A stretch of 64,000 nucleotides of DNA from an uncultured bacterium (GTDB taxonomy: Bacteria > Omnitrophota > Omnitrophia > Omnitrophales > Aquincolibacteriaceae): NCBI GenBank assembly GCA_964385615.1, contig CAYLPP010000014.1, forward strand, positions 3,836 through 67,835, written 5' to 3'. Of the stretch, positions 552 to 62,034 are shown piece after piece. The notes beneath the pieces are model-generated. The model worked only from the letters and a program-made list of their open reading frames with translations, did no database searches and had not been told where the DNA came from. Position 1 is the first letter of the stretch; each line of letters starts with the position of its first letter. The position numbers were made by a program, and so were the translations under genes.

Positions 552-639
552 TCATTTCCCCTTGGTTTACACAGAGAAATGATAGCAATACAAATGGTCA
601 GCAGTATGACGGGAAGATTACAGGTTGGTAATCTTCAAA

Positions 640-2722: not shown

Positions 2723-2725
2723 ACC

Positions 2726-3532: not shown

Positions 3533-3580
3533 GAAAACGTTAAATAATACCCCTCTATGAAATTAATTCTGAATAAATTG

Positions 3581-4533: not shown

Positions 4534-4542
4534 GAAGAAACC

Positions 4543-5559: not shown

Positions 5560-5574
5560 GTTTTAAACTCCTCA

Positions 5575-8655: not shown

Positions 8656-8656
8656 A

Positions 8657-9556
8657 TTATTCCTCGCCCAATTCGCTTTTCAAAAGCTCGGATTTCAAGA
8701 TAAAGCTGCCTTGCGTCACAATGATCTCTCCTTCACTAAGCCCTTCGGTAATGGCTGTCTCTTTGTCAGTTTGAGTCCCTACCTTTACTGACCGCACCTC
8801 AAAGGTTTCATCGTCTTTCACAACAAACACCGTATCGCCATTTTCCATGTTTTGAACGGCTGCCCGGGACACAATGAAAAATTTCTGTTCGGACTCGCGT
8901 TCAATTTTCCCATTCACAAACATACCGAATTTCACAAGATGGTCTTTGTTCTCAACATCCACCCGGATTTTAATGGTCCGGCTGTTTTCATCCACACGAG
9001 GAGAAATGAAAACCACCTTTCCTTCAAATTCTTTATCAGGATAAGCGGAAGTCGTGACAATTACTTTTTGCGCTAATTGAATTTTTCCCAAATCTTTTTC
9101 ATACACATCAAAACTAGCTCTTAAGACATCGGGATTCGCAATGGTCACAATTGAAGTCAAAGGATCAACAGAATCGCCCTCTTTCACATACTGAGAAATG
9201 ACGATGCCGTGAGAAGGTGAAAGAAGCTCCTCTTCCCCAGCGGAAGTCTGAACAGTGGCGATAGGACTTTTTTCCTCCACCGTTTGTCCCACAGCAACTT
9301 TAAGGCTTTTTAACACACCTTTTGATTTAGAGGCGACATAAACCGTATTCTCCGTATCCTGGGAAATCGAGCCATAGACCTCCAAATAAGAGATCAGTTT
9401 TCGTTTTTCGACTTTGGTTGTTTTCAGATCTATGGATTGCTGTATTTCTTTCTTCATGACAACCACAGGAGTTTTAGACTCTGGAGGAGCTTCCTGTTTT
9501 TTTGGGCTACACCCGATGACAATCAATGGAATTAATAAAAGAAGCCACTTTTTCAT
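8657..9556 (-). CDS. czcB: RND efflux periplasmic adaptor subunit (CzcB/CusB-like), lipoprotein
   Basis: 299 aa with a lipobox (LIVIGCS). It has the biotinyl/lipoyl-like and beta-barrel MFP regions. It sits directly between the OMF and RND genes, overlapping czcC by 1 nt. Confidence 0.85.
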   Translation of the reverse strand: MKKWLLLLIPLIVIGCSPKKQEAPPESKTPVVVMKKEIQQSIDLKTTKVEKRKLISYLEVYGSISQDTENTVYVASKSKGVLKSLKVAVGQTVEEKSPIATVQTSAGEEELLSPSHGIVISQYVKEGDSVDPLTSIVTIANPDVLRASFDVYEKDLGKIQLAQKVIVTTSAYPDKEFEGKVVFISPRVDENSRTIKIRVDVENKDHLVKFGMFVNGKIERESEQKFFIVSRAAVQNMENGDTVFVVKDDETFEVRSVKVGTQTDKETAITEGLSEGEIIVTQGSFILKSELLKSELGEE

Positions 9557-10830: not shown

Positions 10831-10898
10831 AACCGTCTTTTAAAAGTTAGAGTGCGACTAGATTAAATTACGGAAAGACAGACGGATTGCGTCTAGGA

Positions 10899-11189
10899 TT
10901 AGACGGCGAGAGGTGGGTGAAAAATTGATCCGGCGGGCGGATCGGGAGCAAAGCTGAGAGCTGTAGGAATAAACAACATGGCAATTAAATTTGTGAAAGC
11001 GTTAACGCTTGGAGTTGACGGAAGCCATTGATGGTGAATCGAACAGCAGAAAAAACAGCACTGGGAATCATCTGCCGAACCCGAAACTGCCTTATCTTCT
11101 TTGTAAGCATGCGCGGGTTCAATTACTACGCAATTAATAAGCCCTGCGAGAGCCACAAATGCCATTAGCCCAATAAAGATACGCTTCAT
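10899..11189 (-). CDS. Small secreted Cys-rich hypothetical protein (possible CzcI-like periplasmic metal-binding accessory)
   Basis: 96 aa with a signal peptide (…AHA|YKE). It contains CCFFCCSIHH. It sits upstream of czcC, where czcI lies in czcNICBA loci. Weak call. Confidence 0.3.
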   Translation of the reverse strand: MKRIFIGLMAFVALAGLINCVVIEPAHAYKEDKAVSGSADDSQCCFFCCSIHHQWLPSTPSVNAFTNLIAMLFIPTALSFAPDPPAGSIFHPPLAV

Positions 11190-11276
11190 GTAAGGAATGT
11201 TACCATCCCTTTAACCCACCGTCAATCACATCAAAATCTTTCTCCCATCTCTTATTTTTAATAATCGGAGTGATTT

Positions 11277-11295
11277 CGGCAGACACTGTCTGCCG
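11277..11295. promoter_or_regulatory. Perfect 9-1-9 palindrome CGGCAGACA-C-TGTCTGCCG, 55 bp upstream of the sigma-like ORF
   Basis: Read directly from the DNA. Candidate operator or recombinase-binding site. Confidence 0.4.
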
Positions 11296-11349
11296 AATCC
11301 TCGCACAAGAAACCTTCAAAAGGGCCGACAAATATCCGTTAAATTTGAT

Positions 11350-11769
11350 ATGTGGAAGACCTACCACAAAATCATGAAGCAATATGGCAAGATTCCACTT
11401 GCCGAGGAACGGCGCTTGATTGCAGAAGCACAAAAGGGCTCAAGGAAATGCGCTGAGGAAATCGTTCTCCGGCATATTGGGTTTGTCGCATTCCGACTTC
11501 GACGGAAGGTTTTTCCGGAATATTTAAAACGGTTCGGCGAAGACTTGCTTCCTGATTCCTTGTCGATTTTGTATCAAAAAGTGGCGACCTATGATCTTAA
11601 ATACCGAGATAAGCACGGCCATGCTAAGCCAGTCAAATTCGCTTCCTATATTTGGAAAAGAATCGACGGGCATATTATTGATTCATTGAAAAAGGAACTC
11701 GCTAAAGACAAAAAGACAAAGCTGGAAGAAGCTCTTTACGCGAGCACCCCTGAGGAGGAATTCATATAA
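11350..11769 (+). CDS. Sigma-70 region-2-only protein (truncated sigma-factor-like)
   Basis: 139 aa. The stretch EDLLPDSLSILYQKVATYDL…KFASYIWKRIDGHIIDSL aligns to sigma-70 region 2.2-2.4 (DLIQEGNIGLMKAVEKFD…FSTYASWWIKQAI). Regions 3 and 4 are absent. Confidence 0.5.
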   Translation: MWKTYHKIMKQYGKIPLAEERRLIAEAQKGSRKCAEEIVLRHIGFVAFRLRRKVFPEYLKRFGEDLLPDSLSILYQKVATYDLKYRDKHGHAKPVKFASYIWKRIDGHIIDSLKKELAKDKKTKLEEALYASTPEEEFI

Positions 11770-11848
11770 GATCTATTTGGGAATAAGGGCTTTCCCATGA
11801 ACAGGGATTGCTCTTCCTTTTTATCCTGAAATTAGCTATTATTTAGTC

Positions 11849-13567
11849 ATGCACTCTGACCCGAAATCAAAGATTATCAACTGCGCCGTTTACACCCGCG
11901 TTTCTGTGGATGAAAGGGCTGAGACTCAGGCTTATTCTACTCTCGACAATCAACGGGACAGTTGCCTTTCCTATATCAAAAGCCAAAAATCTCAAGGCTG
12001 GCGGGTTTTCAAAACGTATGAGGATTCCGGTCAATCTGGAGGATCTCTTAATCGCTCCGCTCTCAAACAGTTAATCCACGATATTAAGAAGGGCCATATT
12101 CAGGTTATCGTGGTTTATAAAATTGATCGGTTAACAAGAAGCCATAAAGATTTCTATTCACTCCTTGAGGTTTTTAATCAAAACGGCGTGACATTTGTTT
12201 CTACGACTCAGCACTTTGACACCACTTCTTCTGCCGGACGACTTCTTCTTCACATCATGCTTGAGTTCGCACAATTTGAACGCGAGATGGCACAGGAGCG
12301 CACCTACGATAAACGTCTCGCGATGGCCCGAAAAGGGATGTACTGCGGGGGGCGGGTTCCGCTTGGCTATGACTCCAAAAAGAAGCAGCTGATCGTTAAT
12401 CCAGAAGAAGCCAAGATTGTGCAGCTTTGTTTCGAACTCTACCCGAAACTTGGGTCGATGGGCGCCGTTAGCAAAAAATTAAACGAGATGGGATACCGTA
12501 CAAAAAAATTTTACATTAAAGGAAGAAAAGGCGGCGGGAGCACCAAGTTCGACAAAAAGAAAGTTTCAAGCATCTTATCCAATCCACTTTATATTGGGAA
12601 AGTGCGCTTCACCGATAATAAGAATGATAAAGAATACCTTTTTGACGGAGAGCATAAACCTATTATTACTGACTCAAAGCTATGGAGCGATGTCCAAAAT
12701 ATCCTTTCCCTTAACCGCGAAACCCGAAAGACTTTTAAACAAAATAAATATCAAATGCTATTTCAAGGCCTTATCCGTTGCGGAGTTTGCAAAAGCCAGA
12801 TGAGCAATTCCTCTAAACAAAAAAACGGAAAGGTTTATCTTTATTACCGTTGCATTGAGGCGATTGCTAAAGGCAAAACTGCTTGCACCATCAGAACGCT
12901 CCCGGCGGATGAATTGGAAAATTTTCTTATTAACGAATTCAAGACCCTCGGAAAGAACCAAAACCTTCTTAGGAAATCAATTGAAAAGGCTAATACAACA
13001 GCCAAGAAAAGCCTTGGGCCGTTACAGAAAGAAAAGGACGGTATTGAAGCCCAGCTTGTCAAAACGAATCAAGGATTAAGACGGCTCGTGGATATCCTCA
13101 AATCCGAGGACATGCCTCAAAAGAGGGTGCAGACACTTTTAAGCGAAATGTCAGATTTGGAAGCCTCAAAAGAGAAGCTGGAAAATGAATCTCACCGTAT
13201 CAACACAAACATGCACCACCTAAGCCAGTACGTCATTGATACAGAAACATTCACCAAACTTTTTTCGGAATTTCAGGAAATCTTTGAAACTTTCTCGTTC
13301 GAAGAGAAGAGAAATCTTATTCTGTTGCTCGTAAAGGAAGTCGTTTATACGCCTAATAAGATTACGGTGAAATTCTGGGGAGACTTACCGGAAATGAACT
13401 TTGATTTGAAGAACCCGCCTGATTGGACCCCGCCACCCGGCGGGAATGATGACGGCCTCTACCCTCCAAAAGGGCCTAAGGGAAAAGGTGTAGAGGCTTC
13501 GGAACCAAGAGAAAAACAGGTTCGCTCCGGAGTGTCAAATGGCTGGGGGACTAGGATTCGAACCTAG
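11849..13567 (+). CDS. Large serine recombinase (resolvase/invertase N-domain, recombinase domain, zinc-ribbon, coiled-coil)
   Basis: 572 aa. The N-terminal catalytic domain carries a catalytic Ser (VYTRVSVDE…) and (Y)KIDRLTRS. The recombinase domain and a Cys cluster (CGVCKS…YYRC…C) follow. The last ~10 codons overlap tRNA-Gln. Confidence 0.9.
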   Translation: MHSDPKSKIINCAVYTRVSVDERAETQAYSTLDNQRDSCLSYIKSQKSQGWRVFKTYEDSGQSGGSLNRSALKQLIHDIKKGHIQVIVVYKIDRLTRSHKDFYSLLEVFNQNGVTFVSTTQHFDTTSSAGRLLLHIMLEFAQFEREMAQERTYDKRLAMARKGMYCGGRVPLGYDSKKKQLIVNPEEAKIVQLCFELYPKLGSMGAVSKKLNEMGYRTKKFYIKGRKGGGSTKFDKKKVSSILSNPLYIGKVRFTDNKNDKEYLFDGEHKPIITDSKLWSDVQNILSLNRETRKTFKQNKYQMLFQGLIRCGVCKSQMSNSSKQKNGKVYLYYRCIEAIAKGKTACTIRTLPADELENFLINEFKTLGKNQNLLRKSIEKANTTAKKSLGPLQKEKDGIEAQLVKTNQGLRRLVDILKSEDMPQKRVQTLLSEMSDLEASKEKLENESHRINTNMHHLSQYVIDTETFTKLFSEFQEIFETFSFEEKRNLILLLVKEVVYTPNKITVKFWGDLPEMNFDLKNPPDWTPPPGGNDDGLYPPKGPKGKGVEASEPREKQVRSGVSNGWGTRIRT

Positions 13568-13613
13568 ACAGACAGATCCAGAATCTGTCGTGCTACCGTT
13601 ACACCATCCCCCA
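13540..13613 (-). tRNA. tRNA-Gln(CUG)
   Basis: A manual fold of the reverse complement gives UGGGGGA as the acceptor stem. The D-arm is GUGUAACGGUAGCAC and the anticodon loop is UUCUGGA, giving anticodon CUG. The T-arm is GGUUCGAAUCC, the 3' end is UCCCCCA-G-CCA, and CCA is encoded. Confidence 0.85.
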
Positions 13614-13718
13614 ACGGAGAAAATAATATCGGCTTCAGAAGAGTTCCGAAGATTTAAAGAAGAGGCGGTATTATAACCACTTCCGGGGCCAGTCTCAAGG
13701 TGTAAATCCCGAAGGAGA

Positions 13719-14483
13719 TCAGGCCTGCTGCCGGCGTTTTTCCCGCACCTGACTCATAAAATAACGGAAAAGACGCGTTTGAAAGGGGTCCTTGGCTTGA
13801 CGCTCGGGATGCCACTGAACCGCTAGAGTATTGGAGGGTCCTTCAACGGCTTCAGGGATACCGTCCTCCGCGACCGCGGTTATCTTCAAAGATTTTCCAG
13901 GAAGTTTCACAGCCTGGTGATGCTCACTATGCACTTCGATCGTTTTTTTTCGGAAAATCTTATGGAGCACGGAACCCGGCTGAATCTCCACTTTATGAAG
14001 CGGCTGAGTTTTAGAGCAGTGGTTGCGGGCACCTTTAACTTCGGATTTAATGTCCTGATGCAGAGTGCCTCCGCGCATGACGTTCAAAAGCTGCATCCCG
14101 TAACAGATCGCCAGCACTGGCTTGCCTCTTTTTTGCGCTTCCCGGATCAGGGTCATTTCAAAATAAGTGCGGCCTCGATAGATAGGCCTGACTTTTTTCT
14201 TCGTTTTTTCCCCATAGAAACTGGGGTGGATATCCGCGCCGCCAGGAATAATTAAACCATCAAGATGGTTCATGTAGGATTTAATATCGCGGGGAAAAGG
14301 ATTAACGGGGATAATCACGGGAACACCGCCGGCTCTCAAAATGGCCCGGATATAGCGGTAATCACAGACCAGCTCAAATTCCGCGTAGAAAGGCTTAAGC
14401 TTGACGACTTCGCTGGTCACACCGATCATGGGTTTCCCCCGCAAAGTTTCTTTGCGGCGGCGTCTTCGGCGTTTTTTTACCAA
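13719..14483 (-). CDS. Class-I glutamine amidotransferase-like, gamma-glutamyl hydrolase (peptidase C26, PuuD-like)
   Basis: 254 aa with the catalytic Cys in AICYGMQLL and a His/Glu region (WHPE). The N-terminal poly-Arg is probably an artefact of start choice, and MIGVTSE is the likelier start. Confidence 0.75.
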   Translation of the reverse strand: MVKKRRRRRRKETLRGKPMIGVTSEVVKLKPFYAEFELVCDYRYIRAILRAGGVPVIIPVNPFPRDIKSYMNHLDGLIIPGGADIHPSFYGEKTKKKVRPIYRGRTYFEMTLIREAQKRGKPVLAICYGMQLLNVMRGGTLHQDIKSEVKGARNHCSKTQPLHKVEIQPGSVLHKIFRKKTIEVHSEHHQAVKLPGKSLKITAVAEDGIPEAVEGPSNTLAVQWHPERQAKDPFQTRLFRYFMSQVREKRRQQA

Positions 14484-22829: not shown

Positions 22830-23393
22830 TTACTCTGTAATCACTTGGTCCACAGGAAGGTCATGCTTCGCGACCGGAACTCTTTTAACCATCTGGCAGC
22901 GGAAAGCTAAACCTATTTTCTCCGCGCCGCTCAACCTCGCGAGAAATCGGTCAAAATAACCGGCACCGCGCCCGAGCCGGCGCCCTTTCCGGTCAAAACC
23001 CAGCCCAGGCACAAACGCAAGTTCAATGGACGCGGGTTTTCCAAGCCGGGAGCGCGAGGGTTTCGGTTCTAAAATACCGTAAGCTCCTTTACGCAGATCT
23101 TTTCTAAAATTCGCAACCCGGTAAATGCGGATTTTCTTTCCGGAAAGCACCAGGGGCGCGTAAACCTGCTTCCCATCTTCAAGGGCTTTAAGAATCAAAC
23201 CGGACGTCTGGACTTCCGTTCCAAATGAGACATAAGTCAGAAGTGTCCGGCAACGGCGATACGCCGGATGTTTTAAAACACGCAAAAGAATTTTCCGGTT
23301 TTTAATTTGACGGGCACGGGGCGAAAGAAGCTCCAGTTTTTTTTTCAGGGCTTCCCGCATCCGGGATTTCTGGATTTTAATATCAGACGGCAT
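22830..23393 (-). CDS. 5-formyltetrahydrofolate cyclo-ligase
   Basis: 187 aa with a GAGYFDR-type C-terminal motif. The size and layout fit MTHFS. Confidence 0.75.
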   Translation of the reverse strand: MPSDIKIQKSRMREALKKKLELLSPRARQIKNRKILLRVLKHPAYRRCRTLLTYVSFGTEVQTSGLILKALEDGKQVYAPLVLSGKKIRIYRVANFRKDLRKGAYGILEPKPSRSRLGKPASIELAFVPGLGFDRKGRRLGRGAGYFDRFLARLSGAEKIGLAFRCQMVKRVPVAKHDLPVDQVITE

Positions 23394-23398: not shown

Positions 23399-26300
23399 CT
23401 AATTTTTAAGTTTCGGGGCAGGCGCCGGAACCGCTCGTTCAATGCCGGACCGCTGAGCTTCTTCCATCACCATCTGTTCGGTTGGAGACTGAGCCGGAAG
23501 CCACTGGCTTTCCCGGCGGCGAACCTGAAGTTCCCGAGCATCAAGAACACGCTGTTTTTCCTGGAGCTGATAGTCCTGACGGCTGAGCCGGGCCTCCCAT
23601 TCGGTGAGTCTGCCCTGCTCTTTTTGCAGTCCGTCCTGAGCCGCGCGCTTGGCACTTTCCAGATCGGCTTCAGACTTTCTCAACGCGGCCCACTCCCCTT
23701 GAATCTGGGTCTGCAGAGCGCTGAGCTGATTTTCACGGCCGGTCAAAGACGCGAAATTACGTTCAAGCTCTTCCCGGCTGTGACTGATCGCGTTATCATA
23801 ATTTCTTTTTTCTTCCGCCGATTTATTTTTCTCCTGCTCAATTTTAGCTTTTGCCAGCTCGAGGGCTTTCAGATTCTGTTCCAGAGACTGTTCACTGGCG
23901 AGCCGGTCTTTTTCCCAGGCTTGTCTGGAAGCATTAAACGTTTCCACATTCTGAAGGTAAACCGCGTTTTGAGTTTCCAGCGCCGCGCGTCTTTTCTCAA
24001 ATTCGTCAGCCTGTTCTCCCAGTTTTTTGCGGGCGGTCTCAAGATCTCCGGCCTTGCTGTCCAAAGCCGTTTGACGCTGATCCAACTCCAGATTCCGGGC
24101 ATCCAGGCTCTGAGCATTCTGGGTTAAAAACGTCTGGGCTTGCTGCATGGCGGATTCCTTGGCGCTCCGCTCCTGAACCCAAGCCTGCTTCTCGGCCGTA
24201 AAAGCCTGCTCTTTTTCTTCCAAAGCTTTTTTCACCTGAGCGTTTTCATTTTCGAGACGCGAAGCTTTGGTTTCACGCTCGGAAACCGCTTTTTCAGCGG
24301 CGGATACCAACTGCTTTTCTGAATCAAGTTTGTTTTTCAATTCAGTTTTTTCAGCTTCCCAGGCCGTTCGAAGCTGATTGAATTCCGTCAACTGCTTTTC
24401 GTAAAGACTCTTATCCCGTTCCAAAGCCGCTTGCTGATTTTTAAACTTGGCCTGTTCCTGTAAAAGCTGATCCTGGCGCGAGGAAAGCTGACTTTTCGCT
24501 TCCTTAAGCATGAGGGTTTCAGATTCCAGCTTTTTCTGTCCTGTCGAAAGAACCGCTTCCCGCTGTTCCAGGTCCTTACTCCGCAAATCCAGAGACTGCG
24601 TCTGATCTTTAATGCGCGTTTCAGCCAGAAGTTTCTCATTTTCAAAACGCTTCCGGTCCTGATCAAGTAATGATTTCAGCTCAGAGGATTTCAAATCAAA
24701 AGCCTGTTTATCGGCGTCCAGAACCCGTCTCTCCTCGCCCAGCTGTTTTTTCTCATCAGATACGGCACGGGCCTTTTGATTCAGCGCGCTTTCACGGACG
24801 TTTAAAGCTTCCTGCCGGGATTCCAGACTGGTTTTAAGCTCTGAAACAGCCTGCTCACGGCCGGCCATTTCCAACGCCTGTGCTTTCTTTTGTTCTTCCC
24901 AAATAGTCTGATCCTGACTGAGCTTCAGAGTCCCGACCTTGAACGCGGCCTCCTCAGCTTCAAATGAACGGATGCGCTCGGCAAGAGAAGCCTGATCGGC
25001 CGCGATTAGGTTCCGGCTATCGGTCATTTTAGCTTCCCATTCCGAACGCATTTTCTCAAATTGGGTTTTCTCAGTTTCTAACTTCTTACGCTCAAGCAAA
25101 AGATCCGCTTTAGCCTGAGAAAGTTCTTTCTGGAGTCCGCTAAGCCGGGCTTCTTTATCAGTTACCGTTTTCTGGCGTTCTTGGAGCTGTGCGTCCAAAG
25201 CCCCAAGCCGGGCTTCTTCACCGCTTTTTTCATTCTGCCAGGCTCTTTTCTCCTCGTTCCAATGAAGTTTGTCATCAGAAAGCTGAGCGCGGGAAGCAGC
25301 AAGTTCCTTATCCTGATCGGCCAATCCCTGAGTCCGCTGATCAAGGCTAAGTTTAAGATTGGCCAGGTCCTGTTTCTGTGAAGCGAACTCTTCTTTACGT
25401 CCCGAAAGTTCGAGCTCCCATTTCTTTTGGGCGGCGTCAAGCTGATCACGGCCCCGTTCCAGCTCCGCGGTTTGAGCGCTCACAGCCGACTCACGGGCTT
25501 CCATGTCTTTTTGCCGCTGATCCAGAGCTTTTCTTTCCTGAGCCAACTTCTCCTTGAGAGGGAGGAGTTTTCCCAGCCGGACTTCAAGATCTCGCTCCTT
25601 ATCCTGAAGCGAACTGTTTCTAGCGGCAAAATCCGCTTCCTGCAAATCCCGGGCTTTTGTCCATGCCAGCTTGTCGTTTTCGTAGGCCGAGATTTTACGG
25701 CCGAACGCGGTCTTCTCTTCCTCAAAAGCTTGCTGGCGTTTTTTCATCTCTTCAACAGATTGAGCCCAGCGGTCGCGGTCAGTCTGAAAAGCAGTTTTTT
25801 CCTGAACCAGCTCGTCACGGAGATTCTCCAACTGTGTTTTTTCGTCTTTGATTTTCATTTTTCCCGCCTCAACAGAACTTGAAAGCTTTTCGAGCCGGGC
25901 CTGTTTTTCTTCTACCTGAGCCTGACGGCTTTGCAGAATCTCCTGATCTTTTATAGATTCTTCTTCGCGTTTTTTTAAAGCTTCTATTTTTTTCTGATAC
26001 TCGCCCAAATCTCGGTCTATCCTCGAGCGAGCCGCGGAAGTTTCATCTTCAGCCTGCTTACGCATCCGCTCAATACCGGCTTTTTCAGCTTCCAGCGCAG
26101 CACGTTCAGACTCCAGACCGCTTTTCTGTTTCTCAAAATCGGTACGCCGGGCTTCAAATTCCCGCTGAAGTGATTCAAAAACCTGCGTCTTTTCCTGTAA
26201 CGCTGTTTCCTCTTCCCCGATCTTCTTCCGGCTCGCTTCAAGCACGGTTTGCTCCTGCGATCTGGCTTTAACCTCGCTTTCAAAAGCCGCCGCGCGGTCC

Positions 26301-28924
26301 GATAACTCTTTTTCCCTGGAAGCCAAATCAAGTTCCTTGCGGTTTAATTCTCCCCTCGCGTCTTCAAGCTGAAGCTTAAGAGCTTCCGCTTGTTGTTTTT
26401 CCTGATTCAAGGATTCCCGCTTGCCCAGCCATTCCTTTTTCTCAAACGCAAATGCCTTCCTCCCCGCTTCAAACTCCGACTCCCGCTTATCCAAATTTAA
26501 TTGTCTATTCTTGAGCTGATCTTCCAAAACGGTCAAGGACTGCTGTTTCTGTTCCAACGCGGCCTTGTCGCCATCCAGCTGTTTTTGGAGCTCTTCGAAC
26601 TTCTGTTTTTCTCCTGAAAAACTCGATTGTTTTTCCATCCAGATTTTTTTATTGTCCGCAAGTTCTTTACGCTCAGCTTCCAAATCACTCGCTGTTTTTT
26701 CCAGCTCCTGCTTGCGCTGAACAAAATCCTGCCGCTCCGCTTCCAGATCGGCTTTTAACCGCTCAATCTCAGCCTTCTGATTTTCCATCTGCCGGCTGGT
26801 CAGGGTAACGTCTTTTTGCTTTTCAATAAAAGCTTCTTCCTTGCGGAGAGCGTTAGCCTGACGGTCCTCAAGATGCTGTTTAAAGGCGGCCAGCTCCTGC
26901 TTGTTTTTCTCCAGCTCTGCTTTTTCTTTCTCAAAACTCTGGAGCTCTGACTCAAACTGCCTGCGGTCTTCCTGAAACCGTGTGATTTCTTTCCGCTGGT
27001 CTTCTTTTTCAGCATTAAACTTTTCACGTTCCTGACGGATAGCCGCGGAAGCTTCCTTCTGCTTTTCGACATCCGCCTGTATCCGGGCACTTAATTTCTG
27101 CTGATTCTGCTCCTGAAGCATTTTTGCCTGTTCCAGCTCTGATTTTAAATTCTCAAGCTCGCCGGCCATCCGCTGTTTTTCAGCTTTAAGAGTTTCAAGC
27201 TCCGCCTGACGGTCCGCTTCTTTTTGCTGTGAAATCTCAAGCGTTTCCTGGAGTTTCCCCTGAAGGGAGGACTGACTGCGGGCAAGTTCGCTTTTAAGCG
27301 ACGCGACTTGCTTTTCCAGAACCGCTTTACCGGATTCCATATCCTGCAGACTCGCCTGAAGATCCGCGTCACGTTGTTGGGAGGCTTCAAGAGCTTCTGC
27401 CGCGCCGGCTCTCAGCTCTTCATTTTTCTTTTTAAGCTCCGCATTCAGCAAACGCAAATCTTCAAGCTGTTGAGCCGCCTTATCCTTGGAAACGGCCGCT
27501 TCTTTCAGCTGGCGGTTTTCATCCGTTAATTTTTGAACCTCGGAAATTAAATCCGTCTGCTGATTGCCGATCATTTCTTTCTCAGTTTTAAGACGGGTCA
27601 AACCCGCGTTCAGCTCGGCAAGCTGAGCCTTGAGGGTTTTAATTTCATCTTTTGCCGCGGCGTCCATATCCGCACTTTGTTTTTGCAGTTCATTTTTCTT
27701 TTGGCTTTCCCACGACTGTTTTTCCTGAGCGAAAATCTCACGGGCATTTAAAAGCGCCTGGCGGGATTTCTCTATCTCGCTCTTTTCGTCCAAAACCTTC
27801 CGTTCAAGCTGTTTTTGCCCGTTAACCGCTTCTTCCCTGACCGTTAGCTCTTTTTCCCTCTTATCAAGGCTTTCAAGGCGGGCTTCAAGCGCCTGCTCTT
27901 TTTGCGCCAATTCCGATTCCCGCGCGGTATTCTGGGCTTCCAGAGTTTTAAGGGTCTGTTCCTTTTCACCCTGCCCGGCCTGAACCGCCTGACGCGCTTG
28001 CTCCAGCTCCCCTGTTTTTTCTTCAAGCTGGCGGGTTTTTGCTTCAAGATCTTTTTCCCGCGTCGAGGCTTCCAACTTCAGCCTTTCCTTCTCTTTTTCA
28101 AGACCGGCAATCCGGCTTTCCAGATCTTTCACGGCCTCAGGCAACTTGGTATCCGGCTTAGGCGCGGCATCGATCTGCTTCTTTTGTGAAGCAAGACTGT
28201 CCAACAGGGAGGCGCGTTCTTTATCCCAATCCTGCCTTGCTTTTTCAAACTCGGCCTGTTTCTCCATAAGAAAATCTTTTCCGGACTCAACGGCACCCTT
28301 GGGAGGAGCTCCTCCGCTCTTCATACCCCGCTGAGCCTCAAGGTCCTGACTCAACTTTTGCATTTCAAAAGCTTTCTTCTGTTCCGTTAACTCTCCCTGC
28401 TGTTTTTCAAGATCTTTCAGCTTCTCCATCCACATCTTCTTAAACTGCTCACCGGAAACCATTTTCTGTTTCAAGTCCTGTTCCCAACGGGCCAGCGCCT
28501 GGCCTTTCGCCGTCAATTCCTTGTCTTTTTCAGAAAGTCTTTCAGAACGGCCCGCCTTCTGTCTCTTTTCAAGATCCTCAATCTTCTTCTTTTGGAAAAG
28601 AATCTCTTCGTCTTTCCGGTGAAGTTCTTCCAGAATCTGCGCCGTCGATTCAGGAACATCAGGCTTAAGTTCGCGCTTTTCAATATCCCAGGCTTTTTTA
28701 CGGATTTCAAAGTCCTGAATCTTCTGAAGAAGGCCTTGCTTGATTTTTTCGAGCTGTTCCTCTTTTTTATCGAGAAACGCCATCTGCTTGTCGCGTTCTT
28801 TTTGCCATTGCTGTTTCTGCTTTAAAAAATCAGAGGTGGATGAGGAATCCTGATCGGCCGCGTAAACGAAGGGCGCGGCGGAAGATGCGGCGTTTATGAG
28901 GGCTAAAAAGAAAAAAAGCCCCAT
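23399..28924 (-). CDS. Giant secreted coiled-coil protein (~1,840 aa; E/K/Q/A/L/R-rich)
   Basis: This is the long ORF 23399..29137. I moved its start to the ATG at 28924 (MGLFFFLALINAASSAAPFVYA|ADQD, a signal peptide), because the upstream 71 codons would overlap the tRNA-Arg region. Apart from the signal peptide the product is almost pure heptad-like charged repeat. Confidence 0.75.
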   Translation of the reverse strand: MGLFFFLALINAASSAAPFVYAADQDSSSTSDFLKQKQQWQKERDKQMAFLDKKEEQLEKIKQGLLQKIQDFEIRKKAWDIEKRELKPDVPESTAQILEELHRKDEEILFQKKKIEDLEKRQKAGRSERLSEKDKELTAKGQALARWEQDLKQKMVSGEQFKKMWMEKLKDLEKQQGELTEQKKAFEMQKLSQDLEAQRGMKSGGAPPKGAVESGKDFLMEKQAEFEKARQDWDKERASLLDSLASQKKQIDAAPKPDTKLPEAVKDLESRIAGLEKEKERLKLEASTREKDLEAKTRQLEEKTGELEQARQAVQAGQGEKEQTLKTLEAQNTARESELAQKEQALEARLESLDKREKELTVREEAVNGQKQLERKVLDEKSEIEKSRQALLNAREIFAQEKQSWESQKKNELQKQSADMDAAAKDEIKTLKAQLAELNAGLTRLKTEKEMIGNQQTDLISEVQKLTDENRQLKEAAVSKDKAAQQLEDLRLLNAELKKKNEELRAGAAEALEASQQRDADLQASLQDMESGKAVLEKQVASLKSELARSQSSLQGKLQETLEISQQKEADRQAELETLKAEKQRMAGELENLKSELEQAKMLQEQNQQKLSARIQADVEKQKEASAAIRQEREKFNAEKEDQRKEITRFQEDRRQFESELQSFEKEKAELEKNKQELAAFKQHLEDRQANALRKEEAFIEKQKDVTLTSRQMENQKAEIERLKADLEAERQDFVQRKQELEKTASDLEAERKELADNKKIWMEKQSSFSGEKQKFEELQKQLDGDKAALEQKQQSLTVLEDQLKNRQLNLDKRESEFEAGRKAFAFEKKEWLGKRESLNQEKQQAEALKLQLEDARGELNRKELDLASREKELSDRAAAFESEVKARSQEQTVLEASRKKIGEEETALQEKTQVFESLQREFEARRTDFEKQKSGLESERAALEAEKAGIERMRKQAEDETSAARSRIDRDLGEYQKKIEALKKREEESIKDQEILQSRQAQVEEKQARLEKLSSSVEAGKMKIKDEKTQLENLRDELVQEKTAFQTDRDRWAQSVEEMKKRQQAFEEEKTAFGRKISAYENDKLAWTKARDLQEADFAARNSSLQDKERDLEVRLGKLLPLKEKLAQERKALDQRQKDMEARESAVSAQTAELERGRDQLDAAQKKWELELSGRKEEFASQKQDLANLKLSLDQRTQGLADQDKELAASRAQLSDDKLHWNEEKRAWQNEKSGEEARLGALDAQLQERQKTVTDKEARLSGLQKELSQAKADLLLERKKLETEKTQFEKMRSEWEAKMTDSRNLIAADQASLAERIRSFEAEEAAFKVGTLKLSQDQTIWEEQKKAQALEMAGREQAVSELKTSLESRQEALNVRESALNQKARAVSDEKKQLGEERRVLDADKQAFDLKSSELKSLLDQDRKRFENEKLLAETRIKDQTQSLDLRSKDLEQREAVLSTGQKKLESETLMLKEAKSQLSSRQDQLLQEQAKFKNQQAALERDKSLYEKQLTEFNQLRTAWEAEKTELKNKLDSEKQLVSAAEKAVSERETKASRLENENAQVKKALEEKEQAFTAEKQAWVQERSAKESAMQQAQTFLTQNAQSLDARNLELDQRQTALDSKAGDLETARKKLGEQADEFEKRRAALETQNAVYLQNVETFNASRQAWEKDRLASEQSLEQNLKALELAKAKIEQEKNKSAEEKRNYDNAISHSREELERNFASLTGRENQLSALQTQIQGEWAALRKSEADLESAKRAAQDGLQKEQGRLTEWEARLSRQDYQLQEKQRVLDARELQVRRRESQWLPAQSPTEQMVMEEAQRSGIERAVPAPAPKLKN

Positions 28925-29110
28925 TGAAAAATGGAGCTTACTCTTTTTGTAGTCAGTGTTTGTGATAATTTTAAATCCTCTCCCCGAAGGATGCTTCATA
29001 CTAGTACAGGGATTATAGGAAGTCAACGCTGTATAGGAGGGCAAAAATGCCTGACCGTAGACGGTATTCCTTAAACCGTCACGGATCAGGTATTTGCATT
29101 TGGATGCAAA

Positions 29111-29183
29111 TGCCCCGGGCCGGAATTGAACCAGCAACCTTATCCTTAGGACGGATCTGCTCTATCCAATTGAGCTACCGGGG
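29111..29183 (-). tRNA. tRNA-Arg(CCU)
   Basis: A manual fold of the reverse complement gives acceptor GCCCCGG/CCGGGGC. The D-arm is GCUCAAUUGGAUAGAGC and the anticodon loop is GUCCUAA, giving anticodon CCU. The T-arm is GCUGG-UUCAAUU-CCGGC, the discriminator is A, and CCA is not encoded. Confidence 0.8.
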
Positions 29184-29255
29184 CGAAGAACGCTTTTTGC
29201 TCGATCCTTTACGAAGCACGCGGCCGATAAGAGGAGGACTGAGAAGTCCGACTAC

Positions 29256-29388
29256 TTATCGCACTTGTGCCGTTAGCACAAGTGCAATGAGGATCCACTA
29301 ACTTCAGGCACTCGCACTTGCACATAGGCGCAAGCGGATCAATCAGCTTCTTATGCCGTCAGCACAAGCGAAATGAGGATTAATACTG
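29256..29388. repeat. Two copies of a ~38-nt element, with a related hairpin between them. It lies between the apt 3' end and tRNA-Arg
   Basis: Copy A at 29256-29297 is cttatcGCACTTGTGCcgttaGCACAAGTGCaatgaggatccacta. Copy B at 29348-29388 is cttatGCcgtcaGCACAAGCGaaatgaggattaatact, and it overlaps the apt stop codon. The middle hairpin is cgcacttgcacataggcgcaagcg. Confidence 0.4.
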
Positions 29389-36951: not shown

Positions 36952-39900
36952 TTAGGCTGAAGCCCCTGTGAGTTCCTGGGCGCGGAGGTAACGGCCCAGC
37001 GTTTCAGAAAGCAGGCTTTGTGCCGTAGGCGTCACAAGCCCGGCGCGGGAAATGTACTCAATACCGACTTTACCCAAAAATTCCGCCATGCGCTGAGTGT
37101 ATTCCTTAACGTGAACCACATCCCCCAGATCACGCTTGAGCTGGACCGCGGCCAAAAGCTGAAGCTGGGTCAGTTGATTCATATATTTAAAGGAAGAGGC
37201 CGGATCCATTTTTTCCAGAACCGCCGGATCGATCAAAAAAGAAGGCAGATGATAAAGGTCTTTGATATTTTCCGGCGCGGATGTCACGGAAACGGAAATA
37301 GCGTCTTTGGAACGGCGTCCGGCAGCCAGAACTTCATCCTGCTGAATAATTTCAAAAACTTTGGAGGCCGGACGGCCCTTGACCCATCGCGCGAGTTCTT
37401 CGGCTCCGCGCCCCGCGAAGTAAACCGCCTTCCCCGCCGGGCTTCCACTCTGCTGGAAACCCTCTTCAAGAAGGTCGAGGTACTGGCTGCGCGCGTCTTC
37501 GGGAATATTCAAAAGCAGTTTCGCCGGAAGCACCGCCGAAGCACCGGCCTTGAAAAGCTTCGAATATCCGGAGGCAAGCTCCGAACGGTCTTCCCCTTGA
37601 ATGAAAATCTCCGTTTTACTTTCCGGGAACATGACACCGTACAACTCGCGCATCACGTCAAGCCCCAGAATTTTCGCGGTCGTCTTTGCGGCAACTTCCA
37701 AAGCCGCGGCTCTCGACTCAGACCGGGCGGACGGCACTTCACCGGAAGATTGCTCGCCCATAATCACCGGTAAAATATCTCCGGCAAAACGCTCAAATTC
37801 CGCCGGTTCAGTCCACTTATGCACCTGCCGGATCTCGCGAATCGGCAGCTCAAGCCGCTGCGGATCAAAACTCTTTATGGTTTGCTTCACGTAAGCATAA
37901 AAATGGTTTCTAACCCAGAAATTCTCATCGCTGTGTTGTTCAATAACCGTCCGCACCGGCCCTAACTGAAAAACCGGGTCTACCGGGAATCTCGCGTCTT
38001 CCCCTCCATAAGCGCGGGCACGCAATCCCTCCACCCTGCCGGCAGGCCCCGCGTATAAATACCCGGGAATCCACAGGACAATCACTTCGTCATCCGCGCT
38101 GAATTTCAACCGTCCGCCGGAAACTTTCGTGAACGCATAAGCAAGAGAACTCTTGCCGGACCTTGATACTCCCGAAAGAATGACCGCGTCTCCCTTCTGA
38201 TTGAATAGAATGTCCGAATGGACAATTTCCATCTTTAGCTGCGCCACGATCTCCGGATATTCTTTACGAATCTTATCCATCCAGCCGGTGACAGCTTCTT
38301 TTAACGCGCCGTTCTCGATACTTCCGGGATTTCCGTCATATAAACCGTTCAGGATTGAATGCACGTATCCCCGATACTGTGTAAATTCAGGACGGCTGAG
38401 AATCTCATAAATCTCTCCGGCTTCCCTAAAAAAAGCATCCGCCCTGCCGGCGGAAATCACGTCAGCCTTCGCGCGCAATTCAGCGCGCGCAGGCGGGTAT
38501 ATTTTCTCAAAAGCGGAAAGCATTTCACCGGCATCTTTATAAAGCCGGTCATCCGGGTTTTCCTTCAGCGCGCCCGCGATAATTTCTGAAAGTTTCTTCA
38601 ATTTATCTTTCGAAATAGCCGCTTCGATCTGCACCTGGTTAGGAAAACTTTCATAAAAGCGGGGAATATCCGCAACGCGGACATCCTCAATCAGCTGATG
38701 CCCTGTCGCTAACTGATAAAGAACAAGCCCCAGGACAAAAACATCCGCGCGGGGATTCACAACCCACACCCCTCGGGTCATTTCAGGCGCTAAATAATCC
38801 AACGTCCCGCGAATAACCTCGTCCGCGGCCATCCCAGGATATAAACTTAGTATCCGGCCTTGTACCTGCGAGAGATTAAAATCAATCAGCTTAAGAGAGC
38901 CGTTTCCGGTAACCATAAAATTGGCCGGCTTCAGATCCCGGTGAACAATTCCCCGAAGATGCGCTTCATGAACCGCCTTCAGAATATTTCTCACGATTTC
39001 AATCAATTTTTCCTCAGTAACCGGATTCAAGTAAAGCCAGTCGAGAAGCGTTTTCCCATCTATGTATTCCATTCCTATAAAAGGAACGGGCACCGTGTCA
39101 TCCGCTTGCGAGGGATACACCTTGACCGCGAACGGATTCTCGCGCCCATTAAAAGGAGCCGCGTAGAGTTCCATCGCTTTACGTTCAAGTTCCGCCATTT
39201 CACGGTAATACCCGCCACTATTTGTATAAATTTTCAGCGCCGCGGTTTTACTTGGATCTGATTTTTCCGTAACCTTATGCACTGTGCCGATACCACCGTC
39301 ACCGCCGATCACACCCCCGGCCTCAAAATCCCGCCCGCCAAACCGGACGTCCGTCCTCAGCTCAGACCTTTTTTGCGTTTCGATTTCAGATAAATGAACG
39401 CGCGCGTATTTTTCAAAATCACCGGGATCCACCATGGACTCATTAACCATCGTGACAGTCCACGGCTCAAGAGCGGTTCCTTCATACCCCGGGAAAATAC
39501 CGGCCATGTACTGTTTCAAATGGCTTTCTCCGGGATTCCTAATAGGCATTTTAAAAGGACCTCCGGAAAGCCGAAACTCCGCTCTCACCAGCCCCACGCC
39601 TAAATAAGATTGATAAGGTATATTATTTTCAGAGTCGTAAGCCCTGGCCCTGAGATTCTCAAAAGAATAAGCGGATCCCGCCAGCAAATGGCCTGGAATG
39701 CGGATCAGATTAATATCATCCGCGGACGCGATTTTAACCCGCCCGTTGGAGACACGGCTGAAAGCGTATCCAAGCGACCCTTTCCCCGATTCACTTTCTC
39801 CGAATAAAAGAACGGCTTCGTTGTTTTCGTTAAAAAGAAGATCGCCGTACATCCGGAAGCTCCGCATGAACGGAACGATATCAGGAAATCTTCCGGAAAT

Positions 39901-42900
39901 TTCCGCGTACCATTTTTGAATTTCTTTTTGAAGTTCCGGATTTTTTTTAAACGCGTAATTATTCTGAGGCAGCCCGTAAATAAAAGACGGCGCCATGTGC
40001 AGAAAGCCGCGGAATTCGGGCCGGTTCAAAATTTCATAAATCCCTTCCAGCGCCTTGGAAAATTCCCTGGCCCTTTCTTCAGTCACCGGCGGAGCTTCAA
40101 TTTTTTTCTCGGCGGAACCGGCGCGCGATTCGGAGCGCGGAGAAACCGTCGTCCTTTCGAAGGGAATGCGCACTGTAATCCGGGTACCCGGCACAAAAGT
40201 CATCAAGGAGGCCGCCTGCTCAAACTCGCCGTCCGCGTTGCGCCGCCAAATCCCTTCTCCCGTAACGATCTCGACAAAATTTCCCACAGTGGAAAGTTTG
40301 CGAAACCCATTGCCCCCATACCATTTCCTCTGGCTTCGTTGCCTCACAACCTCCGGATCTCCGAGACCGTAGCCATTGTCCCAAGCCGTGATTTCCACAA
40401 CAGGCCCGCCTTCCTGCTCAATAACTTTAAAACCCACGGCTCCGCCAAAAGCGTATTCGAGCATATTAAAAATCAATTCATGAATGACTCGGGCCCCGAT
40501 CAGCCATTCCTGGCCAAGCACCTGCTGTTCAAGCCGGTACGCGTCAGAAATAACTGAGAAATAAGGCCCCGTTAAAGCCCGGGAATAAATCGGCAGAGCC
40601 TGATAACCTTCAGCGGTCAAAGCCGCGGCTTTCGGCTCGGCCATCAGCCGCCAACGCTCCGTTTCTTCCGAATCGATCGAACGGAGTTCCGATCTTTTTT
40701 TGACCCATCGTTCTTCATAATATTTTTGAAGCGCTGAGTCCCACTCCCGGACCGTGGAAAACCTTTGCTTGCCGAGCTCGTTTAAATTGGAAAAACGTTC
40801 GTTTACCACTCTAAAAATATCCATTGCGTCCAGTAAACCTGTCGGAGAACTCATGGAGGAAACAGCCCGCGCCAGCAAGGACGCTGAGATAAATCCGGAA
40901 ATCGCTTCACGGTCAGACGTGTACTCATCGCTAAAATCAATAAGGACCGGCTGGTTTTCTTTTGTAATAATGACGTTTCGAGGCTGTAAATCGCCATGCT
41001 CCAGCCCTTCAGCTTCCATAAGCTCCACCGCTTTACCAATCCGCAAAGTCCATTCAACAATCTGCTTTTCAAATTCCTCATCGCTCAAACTTTTCGCGGT
41101 GTAAGCCCACCGTTCCAGATTTTCCCCTTCCGCGTAAAGCCGTTCATACTTCCCGCCCTTTTTCTTCCGGATTCTGGGAAAAACGGGGTTGTCCTGATGC
41201 TTCAAAAGAAAATTGACGATAGGTTTATCCCAATTAATCGGAACCCAGTTCTCTTCCGCGGTGCGTATTTCAGAACGGGCCATGGCGCGCCAGGCCTCAA
41301 ATAATTCCGCGGGATTCGCGTAACGTTCGGCAGGATTAGCGCGGACCGCTTTGGCAATCACAGGCGCGAATTTTTCCCATTCCTTTTCCGCATTCTCTTC
41401 CCGCAAGCGCTGAATTATTTCTGAAGGCGTAAAATTCCTGGAAAGCTTTTCAGCCCGAAGCACTTTTGGGCTGAGTGTTTTAAAAAGCCGGTTCCCGGCA
41501 GCGAGCCAGAAAAGAAGGAGTCCCAGGCTGTAAACTTCCGTTTGCGGTTCCAAAGTACCCGCCGGAGCTTCAGGCGCCGCGAACTGGTCCGTGAAACCCT
41601 TATTCTTACGATTTTGTCCGGCGGGCAGTGCCAGACCAAAATCAATAACCGCGGGCTTGTTTTGAGAAGTCATAATAATATTTTGAGGTTTGATGTCGCC
41701 ATGAAGCACTCCGGCGCGGTAAATTGCCGAATGAGCCGCGAGAATATCTTCAGCGGCTTTTTTTAGATCCACAAAACTTTTTCCTTCTCTCCAGCTGTTA
41801 AGCGGCTGACCTTCCGCAAAATCCATAACCAGAGCCGTATCGCCGTTAATTTCATCATCTCTTTGCGTGACCCGGCCAACACCCAGAACATCAGGCACGA
41901 ATTCCGGGGAAGCTTCATGGGCTTGCTTCATCAGATTAAATTCTTCTTCTTGCGCCTCGAAAGAAATTCCGGAATAGGTGTCATAAACTTTCAAGGCTGT
42001 CTCCCGCCCGCTCACAGTGTCGCGGCCGCGGTAAACCCCGGACAACCCGCCGCCAAACGACTCGCCTCCCGCTTTCGATTCATAAACTCTGCCGGCCAAC
42101 ATGACTTGAACGCGGGACTCAGACCGGGAAATAGCTGCCCGGAACGAGCGGAACATTTCTTCAGCGTCAGCATAACGGGCTGAAGGATCAGGATTGATAG
42201 CCCGGGCAATGACTTTGGCAGCGGGGCCCCAGACATCCAACGCTTCCGTGCTTAAGTCTGAGAGCGCCCTGCGGATCTCCGCCGTGCCGGGAGACTGATT
42301 TTTTTCAATTTTGAGCTTTTCCAAATAGAGAAGCGAGTTAAAATCGCCGTCGCTCGGACTCGAAAAAGGCGGCTTGTGCAAAGCCATCCAGTAAAGAATA
42401 ACGCCAAGGCTGTACACATCAATCCGCGGAGTCAGGACGCCAGAACCTTGAAGCGCTTCCGGCGCGGCAAAAAGGTAGGTCCCCTTAACCCGTGAAAGCG
42501 GTTTCCCGATTCTGCTTCCGAAACGAGCCACGCCAAAATCCAGAATTTTAACTCCGGTATCCGTAATATAAATATTCGCGGGCTTCAGGTCCTGATGCAC
42601 AATTTCAGGATGCAGAGAGGCCGCGGCTTCAAGAACGGAAAGGGCCTGCTCCAACACTTGGGGAGCATCCTTACCCTTCACCCAAGCCGCGAGATCCTGC
42701 CCTTCCAAAAATTCCATGACGATAGACGGCATAGGATCTTCAGGACCGTCAATATGCCCCCACCCAATCACCGCGGGCACATGCTCTTTATCCTTCCGGG
42801 CATATTCAATCAAAGCTCTGTATTCGTTTTTGCTGGCAGCTTCACGGTTCACATATCTGTAAATCTTAACTGCTACCGGATTAGAAGATCCGCCGTCATC

Positions 42901-61970: not shown

Positions 61971-62034
61971 AAAGAACAATATTGAAGTGGTGTGATTATA
62001 AAAAGAAAGGAGGGATTGTCAAACAGGAATTTCT

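Follow-up and report, generated by a model that had tools for sequence, protein, structure and literature searches.

Introduction

Long alpha-helical rods are known from several very different systems, which are compared here with a giant helical protein encoded on the minus strand of a 64,000-nt stretch of DNA from an uncultured Omnitrophota bacterium (contig CAYLPP010000014.1; the whole stretch is called the window). Tropomyosin, the myosin II tail and the lamins have in common with this protein a long Pro-free helix rich in E, K, Q, A, L and R, a seven-residue periodicity and occasional stutters. However, both the a and d positions of the heptad are hydrophobic in those rods, whereas the giant protein has one hydrophobic core position (94% occupied, versus 9-12% at the possible partner positions). 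It also differs in being predicted to be exported, in showing no detected g-e' pairing and in having no sequence homology to them. Among bacteria, crescentin, FilP/Scy and Mycoplasma HMW2 (the last of ~1,800 amino acids, aa) are likewise very long helical rods, interrupted by non-heptad stretches and presumed to be structural, but they are cytoplasmic, lack signal peptides and show no Pfam or HMMER similarity to the giant protein. To our knowledge, the well-studied coiled-coil proteins of bacteria that reach this size are all cytoplasmic, W-capped single-seam modules have not been described for crescentin, FilP/Scy or HMW2, and neither have exported helical rods of such a size been described at all.

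Single alpha-helices (SAHs) form a further group, and known examples measure ~30-200 aa, far shorter than the >1,500 aa considered here. Those of the ER/K type resemble the giant protein in their high charge, in the order of E before K/R and in enriched, co-varying i+3/i+4 salt bridges; they have no seam, whereas the Leu/Phe/Trp seam of the giant protein is nearly invariant. It has been reported that SAHs lack a hydrophobic seam and are often mistaken for coiled coils, and that an Ala seam already dimerises designed E/K heptad helices (PMC5347031). Exported helical rods that set distances, or act as tethers for layers of the envelope or for hosts, include Lpp, domain II of TolA, Thermotoga Omp-alpha, the streptococcal M proteins and the stalks of trimeric autotransporters. 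The giant protein exceeds Lpp, TolA or Omp-alpha in length by a factor of several to 30, and lacks the anchors found in this group (lipobox Cys, TolA C-terminal domain, SLH, LPXTG and YadA-type beta-barrel).

Omnitrophota commonly encode large, poorly conserved extracytoplasmic proteins, for which a role in adhesion was proposed, and ultra-small cells were reported for most of the phylum (PMC10066038). The giant protein is like many of these large, poorly conserved exported proteins (PMC10066038), sharing with the large open reading frames (ORFs) the phylum, a signal peptide, few or no domains and poor conservation. However, the giant ORFs of the phylum mostly carry transmembrane (TM) helices and adhesion or enzyme domains, whereas this protein is helical with no TM segment beyond the signal. 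Membership in that giant ORF class, defined at >20 kb (PMC10066038) or at least 10,000 aa (bioRxiv 10.64898/2026.06.07.730766), was rejected because the gene is too small (5.6 kb, 1,866 aa).

The reading favoured here, to which we assign a probability of roughly 45%, is that the protein is a lineage-specific, Sec-exported and self-associating helical rod, up to ~230-270 nm long, that serves as a structural element of the envelope or surface. Judged from its sequence, its way of working would be most like a long fibrous hybrid of coiled coil and SAH, and it matches no named family.

Coding evidence and start codon

On the minus strand an open frame extends from 29137 as far as the TAG stop at 23399-23401 (5.7 kb). 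Since the first 26 bases of this frame (upstream of 29111) overlap the gene for tRNA-Arg(CCT), the usable starts are ATG 28999 (1,866 aa) and ATG 28924 (1,841 aa), and aa numbers are counted from ATG 28999 throughout. Two in-frame TTG codons lie between the tRNA gene and ATG 28999. Beyond aa 26 the frame has no further Met until aa 72, which lies downstream of sequence conserved in P0005, a short plausible relative described below.

The relative synonymous codon usage of the gene correlated with that of ten housekeeping neighbours in frame (r=0.71) and not in the other two frames (r~0), and its GC content of 49% matched the surroundings. The 5.7-kb open frame, the host-like codon usage in frame and the heptad signal (lag-7 z=12.5, see below) establish that the ORF is a real, native coding gene whose periodicity is far beyond chance. 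The preliminary description had named a non-expressed artefact as the outcome that would overturn it, and this is contradicted by the codon usage, the coherent periodicity and the tight gene packing. An artefact or a decaying pseudogene is in fact hardly credible: the lack of a homologue among about 15 billion proteins and of a clear Shine-Dalgarno sequence or promoter would fit it, but the frame stays open over 5.7 kb with host-like codon usage, the periodicity keeps its phase over >1,000 residues, and the next gene on the same strand follows after a 5-nt gap.

Inspection of the start codons and the upstream region gave no clear Shine-Dalgarno sequence or promoter for the gene. The -10 hexamer of the sole sigma-70-like match upstream (Table 1) overlaps ATG 28999, so that translation would start at ATG 28924 if this promoter were used; promoter-like sites in the region were not above shuffle expectation. 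A hairpin followed by a T-run (AAGCTCCATTTTTCAATGGGGCTT TTTTTCTTTT) was also noted at 28916-28939 on the minus strand, over ATG 28924 and the FFF codons of the signal peptide. It is terminator-like in pattern, and the number of such sites was likewise not above shuffle expectation.

No DNA-level repeats longer than 21 bp were found in the gene, which suggests that its modules are old or fast-evolving and kept by pattern alone. A recent tandem duplication was rejected as the origin of the gene, as only two 21-bp micro-repeats and short direct repeats of low identity were present.

A single hydrophobic seam with regular stutters

Six residues make up 67.6% of the giant protein (E 15.0, K 12.1, L 11.5, A 11.4, Q 10.5 and R 7.2%). 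It contains no Cys and 15 Pro, only one of them within aa 288-1834, and is poor in Gly, which recurs every 15-60 residues. The predicted mature protein has ~1,818 aa, a mass of 210 kDa and a pI of 5.5. Its 1,547 Pro-poor residues would measure ~232 nm if fully helical, in agreement with the length of >200 nm proposed before, and the fully extended mature chain would reach 230-270 nm. The subdivision of the chain is given in Table 1. The linkers of the N-terminal segmented region are KPDVPEST, GMKSGGAPPKG and AAPKPDTKLP, and the C-terminal tail reads LPAQSPTEQMVMEEAQRSGIERAVPAPAPKLKN.

Autocorrelation with BLOSUM scores gave z values of 12.5, 11.1, 8.8 and 7.3 against shuffles at lags of 7, 14, 21 and 28 residues, and beyond ~45 residues the peaks moved to 7n+4. 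In windows of 35 residues, typically one heptad phase was hydrophobic in five of five positions and the others in 0-2, and the occupied phase changed along the chain in the order 2→6→3→0→4→1→5→2→6→3→0→4→1→5. A Viterbi model with one position per heptad accordingly divided aa 637-1836 into a block of 353 residues followed by 13 blocks of 17-128 residues, with +4 at every transition; with the shift that opens the 353-residue block, 14 shifts of +4 occur in a row. Over the same range the seam position was occupied by L, I, V, M, F, W or Y in 94% of heptads (L50, F17, W8), whereas the +3 position was 12% hydrophobic (E23, R18, K10) and the +4 position 9% (K26, R17, E17, Q16), giving a consensus heptad of L-E-x-(E/R)-(K/R)-x-x. 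This single-stripe model replaced an a/d Viterbi model (56% occupancy at a, 54% at d), which was misleading because a and d were swapped between blocks.

The Fourier spectrum points in the same direction. The power ratio P(7):P(3.5):P(2.33) was 0.77:1:0.80 for the giant protein, where a true a/d pattern is expected to give ~0.06:1:0.48 and a single stripe 1:1:1; a tropomyosin sequence entered by hand gave 0.22:1:0.77.

In the stutter-free block (aa 637-989) the seam is Phe-rich, and 44 of the 50 heptads carry L, F, I, V, M or W there. The blocks of the following array mostly end with F-x6-W, those at 1374-1441, 1442-1458, 1702-1737 and 1738-1786 ending with L, F, Y and L, respectively. Alignment on the Trp residues gave the consensus L(-28) L(-21) L(-14) F(-7) W(0), after which Leu returns at +11 and +18. 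A run of the seam thus typically ends with F-x6-W, after which an 11-residue step forms the stutter. Three Trp sites (787, 857 and 1078) are without a stutter, and in a MAFFT alignment a 3-residue gap divides them from the remaining 13.

The regular recurrence of the stutters keeps the hydrophobic signal in phase at a period of 3.53 residues, not 3.50 (power 62.9 for aa 990-1836 and 44.6 for aa 637-1836, with a shuffle maximum of 8-9). A coherent periodicity of 3.54 was present in aa 50-636 as well (power 17, shuffle maximum 8.9). If the helices supercoil, the period of 3.53 means that they do so with a left-handed twist, and less tightly than pure heptads would. The seam residues L-L-L-F-W are conserved between the giant protein and P0005 and the polar positions differ, which suggests that the seam is under selection.

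The preliminary description had called the protein essentially a single uninterrupted coiled coil and had likened it to the rod of myosin or lamin. The heptad periodicity and a predicted structure that is nearly all helical bear out a part of this, but one position of the heptad is hydrophobic instead of both a and d. Thus the periodicity of a canonical a/d coiled coil is found in the giant protein and its pair of hydrophobic positions is not. The likeness to myosin and lamin does not hold, given partner positions that are 9-12% hydrophobic, a power ratio near that of a single stripe and charges that co-vary within the helix. Nor is the heptad register continuous, since the seam is broken by more than 14 regular +4 stutters and the first ~290 residues consist of five linker-separated helices.

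Charge pattern and the single-helix alternative

Opposite charges at i+3/i+4 numbered 397, against 300±14 in shuffles (z=7.2). The enrichment came from acid-to-base pairs at i+3 (z 6.8) and base-to-acid pairs at i+4 (z 5.9), acid-to-base pairs at i+4 not being enriched (z 0.2), and the i+3/i+4 pairs within the helix co-varied beyond positional composition (z 2.0-3.9). Such a pattern marks a helix that derives its stability from internal contacts, as SAHs do.

It is conceivable, though unlikely, that the protein is a monomeric, SAH-like spacer or spring stabilised by salt bridges, in which the Leu/Phe/Trp stripe would be a contact surface with a period of ~1.05 nm for some other molecule or polymer. 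The charge pairs at i+3/i+4 are enriched and co-varying in the way this requires, the g-e' pairs are not, and the consensus heptad is like designed SAH heptads of the AEEEKKK type. AlphaFold, moreover, returned isolated long helices with low overall confidence, and SAHs are commonly taken for coiled coils (PMC5347031). However, the dense charge network expected of an SAH is accompanied here by a hydrophobic seam, which SAHs lack, and which is 94% occupied and conserved in P0005. Furthermore, E, K and R together reach only ~34%, lower than in typical ER/K helices, the acid-to-base i+4 pairs are not enriched, and even an Ala seam is enough to dimerise designed heptads (PMC5347031).

Predicted structure

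AlphaFold2 was run from single sequence on two segments. For aa 990-1373 it predicted three helices of 54, 174 and 133 residues (96% helix; predicted local distance difference test, pLDDT, 78; predicted template modelling score, pTM, 0.25), with breaks at aa 1045-1049 and 1224-1239 and with the helix running through the W-stutters. For aa 45-345 five helices were predicted (10-65, 73-134, 139-182, 193-233 and 242-298; pLDDT 72, pTM 0.23). The models thus favour the nearly all-helical protein proposed before; they contain long helices, whereas disordered, low-complexity sequence would have spoken against the proposal. No globular domain was recognised either, in line with the earlier reading, as Pfam gave no families at E<=1 and the AlphaFold helices included no globular domain. 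When the AlphaFold model was compared with PDB by Foldseek, nothing matched at E<=0.001; the best of the non-significant matches were long filamentous helices of ciliary central-pair and doublet complexes.

The breaks and linkers raise the question of whether the chain doubles back to form antiparallel hairpins or bundles like those of spectrin, giving a shorter and thicker rod. The AlphaFold breaks at aa 1045-1049 and 1224-1239, the N-terminal linkers and the recurrence of Gly every 15-60 residues would all allow for this, and an intramolecular partner would compensate for the sparse seam. We regard it as rather unlikely, since the AlphaFold breaks are not at W-stutter boundaries, the helix lengths are very unequal (54, 174 and 133), pTM is 0.25, Foldseek gave no match at E<=0.001 and there is one Pro in 1,547 residues.

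Export signal and cellular location

The sole hydrophobic segment of the protein is N-terminal (GLFFFLALINAASSAAPFVYA|ADQ), with a Kyte-Doolittle maximum over 19 residues of 1.75 at aa 27-45, compared with at most 0.09 elsewhere. From ATG 28999 the N-terminus reads MKHPSGRGFKIITNTDYKKSKLHFS-MGLFFFLALINAASSAAPFVYA|ADQDSSS, with six K/R and one D/E before an h-core of 9-10 residues. The putative cleavage site VYA|AD places V at -3 and A at -1, with an acidic stretch beyond it. The test for a Sec signal was manual, by inspection and hydropathy, and asked for small residues at both -3 and -1 and an h-region of 7-15 residues; a basic n-region, an h-region and small -3/-1 residues, as in cleavable Sec-type signals, were all seen in this way. 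Signals of like shape occur in the window in the OEP (…FSTSIVQA|SD) and the TonB-dependent receptor (…SPASA|AS), and a hydrophobic N-terminus is also present in P0005, where it is aligned, and in the syntenic protein of a related genome (L003, see below). No lipobox (0 Cys), second TM segment or C-terminal sorting motif was found in the giant protein, and its C-terminal tail showed no TM segment, LPXTG, beta-barrel or lipobox signal in translation, hydropathy or Pfam. The export signal named in the preliminary description is therefore upheld as a prediction from the single hydrophobic segment, the basic n-region and the VYA|A site, and by this predicted signal the product is exported or at least membrane-targeted.

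The xseA product encoded nearby is 59-66% identical to proteins of Candidatus Omnitrophota metagenome-assembled genomes (MAGs) and at most ~50% identical to anything else, and the assignment of the host to this phylum is based on it. Since the window encodes a TolC-like OEP, a membrane-fusion protein (MFP), AcrB and a TonB-dependent receptor, the host is a diderm, in which a protein exported by Sec reaches the periplasm by default.

A cytoplasmic cytoskeletal protein like crescentin, Scy/FilP or HMW2, in which the hydrophobic N-terminus would be an inner-membrane anchor or would not be translated, is very unlikely. It would agree with the uncertain start codon and with the cytoplasmic location known for the well-studied bacterial coiled-coil proteins of this size. 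However, six K/R before the hydrophobic segment and acidic residues after it predict an N-in/C-out topology with the rod outside the cytoplasm, the segment looks cleavable, and it is conserved at the protein level in P0005 and the L003 protein. In addition, the next Met (aa 72) lies downstream of the P0005-conserved sequence, and homology to crescentin, filament or other rod families was absent.

Proposed rod and its weighing

The gene is real, and its helical product combines a single seam with salt bridges; we infer that the seam drives lateral self-association. The mechanism proposed here goes beyond these findings in what it says on cleavage of the signal, on the oligomeric state, on the place of the protein past the inner membrane and on its role. 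The protein would cross the inner membrane by its Sec-type signal sequence, which would then be cleaved. Five short Pro/Gly-linked helices would lead into a rod of ~1,550 residues with a single Pro, whose helix would be stabilised from inside by i+3/i+4 salt bridges between Glu and Lys/Arg. At intervals of 50-130 residues a 4-residue stutter, usually after F-x6-W, would re-phase the seam and keep the periodicity at 3.53, and the seam may drive lateral association into a loosely supercoiled rope or bundle of two or three strands, the F/W pairs filling the widened core at the stutters. With E, R and K at the second core position, association would be weak, reversible or dependent on a partner. 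The rod could then act as a scaffold, spacer or tether of the envelope or surface.

Several observations weigh against this picture. One hydrophobic residue per heptad with E, R or K at the partner core position would make a weak homomeric coiled coil, the net favourable g-e' pairs of a parallel dimer (i+5) reached z values of only 0.8-1.6 against position-preserving shuffles, and AlphaFold gave no confident packing between helices (pTM 0.23-0.25). With regard to export, the n-region is unusually long (25 aa) from ATG 28999, there is no charged n-region from ATG 28924, and the only promoter-like match favours the latter start. A rod of 230 nm cannot span the periplasm radially, so it must run tangentially, double back or be exported beyond the periplasm. 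Finally, the neighbours are housekeeping genes with no functional link.

If the exported rod is real, diderms would have a 210-kDa rod beyond the inner membrane as a novel type of element of the envelope or surface, which would be notable in a phylum of mostly ultra-small and possibly host-dependent cells. The extended rod (230-270 nm) would be of the same order as the size of ultra-small Omnitrophota cells (PMC10066038). A bolder version, quite unlikely as it stands, is that the protein represents an undescribed class of exported fibre, a rod of ~230-270 nm with one apolar residue per 1.05-nm heptad and W-capped phasing stutters, which would be a periplasmic or surface 'exoskeletal' filament or a ruler along a polymer with a period of ~1 nm, such as a peptidoglycan glycan strand or a pilus. 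The sequence also offers a natural test case of 1,200 residues for how a single-residue seam, salt bridges and aromatic-capped stutters relate to oligomerisation and supercoil pitch, and it illustrates that heptad periodicity in an E/K/Q/L sequence need not mean a coiled coil of the myosin type.

Relatives and family assignment

The preliminary description had advised looking for homologues, and none was found beyond two plausible short relatives. Word-indexed searches of 5.8 billion clusters were empty for the whole protein, for the N-terminal 308 aa and for a profile of 16 W-modules, and the exact sequence, in five start variants, was not in a collection of 15 billion proteins. GTDB genome contigs contained no homologue, JGI metagenome contigs gave nothing by protein or by the alignment of the giant protein and P0005, PDB sequences gave no match at E<=0.01 and PHROGs no family. 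When aa 1-1200 were compared exhaustively with 1.84 billion representatives by phmmer, five matches of 34-36 bits emerged and none above. Four of them are unrelated heptad-repeat proteins, namely three FHA proteins and one TM-anchored S/T-rich repeat protein, and each of the four carries a single hydrophobic residue in its heptads.

The fifth match, P0005, comes from an ENA contig of 880 bp, where its ORF spans 120 aa. It is 39% identical to the giant N-terminus over aa 29-102 and 59% identical over WQKERDKQMAFLDKKEEQLEKIKQGLLQKIQDFE, aa 65-104 being most conserved, and the conserved residues include the signal-like N-terminus. The second plausible relative was found by its position. In L003, a related Omnitrophota MAG, an ORF of 253 aa (8620-9381) lies directly upstream of the 5-formyltetrahydrofolate cyclo-ligase gene and encodes a helical protein rich in Glu, Lys and Ala with a signal peptide. 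It contains motifs such as AFEKEKQSW and shows weak colinear similarity to the giant protein (E=0.005) and to P0005 (E=0.04). On the sequence evidence the giant protein is effectively an orphan, with these two ORFs as its only plausible relatives.

The same locus differs in the other related Omnitrophota MAGs. In L004 the ligase gene directly follows tRNA-Arg(CCT), and in L001 a different gene occupies the site. In L003 the site (5736-9381) holds, besides the 253-aa ORF, a RhuM/Fic-domain gene and rmuC, which stand between that ORF and the tRNA gene; the tRNA gene is on the opposite strand to these genes. The tRNA-Arg(CCT)/ligase locus thus appears to be a variable hot spot among the three related MAGs, and it is plausible that the exported helical proteins with W-modules found there form a family that is small and evolves quickly, with the giant protein as a greatly lengthened member. 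An island with tRNA-derived att repeats was considered and rejected, as there were no such repeats and both GC and codon usage were native.

The three FHA proteins (P0002-P0004) have in common with the giant protein one hydrophobic residue per heptad. Occupancy of their best phase was 4.0-5.0 of 5 and that of the partner 0.2-0.75 of 5, compared with 4.24 and 1.20 in the giant protein. However, they are cytoplasmic FHA/DnaJ proteins with near-identical short repeats, no W-stutter modules and no signal peptide. The single-stripe heptad design therefore recurs in unrelated bacterial proteins. The arrays in P0002-P0004 are built of near-identical 7-residue repeats such as RQAELET and ERTEFET.

Several named families were tried and rejected. 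Rod_CreS, Filament, EzrA, DivIVA and other named rod families gave no Pfam match. NCBIfam gave only sub-threshold matches of the SMC coiled-coil type, 53.3 bits against a cutoff of 567 for TIGR02168 and 30.8 against 300 for NF045487, and a relation to SMC was dismissed as these covered arms only, with no SMC_N or hinge. A spacer of the Braun lipoprotein type was excluded by the absence of Cys, and hence of a lipobox. Trimeric autotransporters, M proteins and Omp-alpha were set aside since there was no Pfam match and no second hydrophobic segment. Similarly, a phage tape-measure protein was rejected on the lack of PHROG families and on the housekeeping neighbours.

Genomic neighbourhood

The coordinates of the giant gene, its parts and the adjoining features are collected in Table 1.

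Table 1 Features of the giant gene and of its immediate surroundings (positions in the window)
Feature	Position	Strand	Remarks
tRNA-Arg(CCT)	29111..29184	-	directly upstream; upstream edge of the locus that varies between relatives
Sigma-70-like promoter match	28998..29026	-	TTGACT-17-TAGTAT; sole such match upstream, weak
Giant helical protein, coding sequence	23399..28999	-	1,866 aa + TAG from ATG 28999; alternative ATG 28924 gives 1,841 aa
Predicted Sec signal sequence	28856..28999	-	aa 1-48; long basic n-region, h-region GLFFFLALI, c-region SSAAPFVYA, then ADQD
N-terminal segmented helical region	28139..28855	-	aa 49-287; four or five helices between Pro/Gly linkers
Pro-free rod start	27092..28138	-	aa 288-636; heptad blocks with irregular register shifts (+1, +3, +4) in the stripe Viterbi
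Stutter-free block	26033..27091	-	aa 637-989; 50 consecutive heptads in one register
W-stutter array	23492..26032	-	aa 990-1836; 13 blocks of 17-128 residues, full single seam
C-terminal tail	23402..23491	-	aa 1837-1866; Pro-containing, ends ...AVPAPAPKLKN
5-formyltetrahydrofolate cyclo-ligase gene	22830..23393	-	assigned by Pfam; starts 5 nt past the stop of the giant gene

The ligase gene is probably co-transcribed with the giant gene; xseA, xseB, ispA, dxs and the NAD kinase gene come after it on this strand. Upstream of the giant gene are the tRNA gene and genes for a phosphoribosyltransferase, a sigma-70 factor and PPDK, followed by glyS/glyQ. The ligase neighbour suggested a relation to ZapA and 6S RNA, ZapA being the product of the coiled-coil gene that precedes ssrS-ygfA in E. 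coli. This was rejected, as there was no Pfam match to ZapA and no 6S RNA in the window, and the giant protein has a signal peptide.

Between the phosphoribosyltransferase gene and tRNA-Arg, the intergenic region 29185-29385 (minus strand) appears as a strongly structured RNA (minimum free energy -72 kcal/mol, z=-4.0) with no Rfam match. A 31-nt motif, ATCCTCATTnCnCTTGTGCTnACGGCAnAAG, occurs twice in it (29264-29294 and 29350-29380), and one copy forms a perfect 11-bp hairpin. Just upstream of glyQ/glyS, an ORF of 3,940 aa (36952-48774, minus strand) encodes five Ser/Thr kinase domains (Pkinase E=1e-147, five stretches); it is the multi-kinase gene mentioned in the preliminary description.

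Positions 1-14000 of the window are lower in GC (0.43-0.46) than the rest (0.47-0.54). The boundary coincides with tRNA-Gln (13540-13613, minus strand) and with a large serine recombinase gene (11849-13567, plus strand) whose end overlaps the tRNA gene. This block, probably an integrated island, carries the OEP-MFP-AcrB genes and genes for a CDF transporter, an LssY_C protein and a histidine kinase. At the other side of the window, a cobalamin riboswitch (61701-61976, minus strand; 39 bits, above the gathering threshold) lies upstream of the TonB-dependent receptor gene (59736-61625), and cobalamin biosynthesis genes (CobD/CbiB, CobQ-like) are found downstream at 52124-55794.

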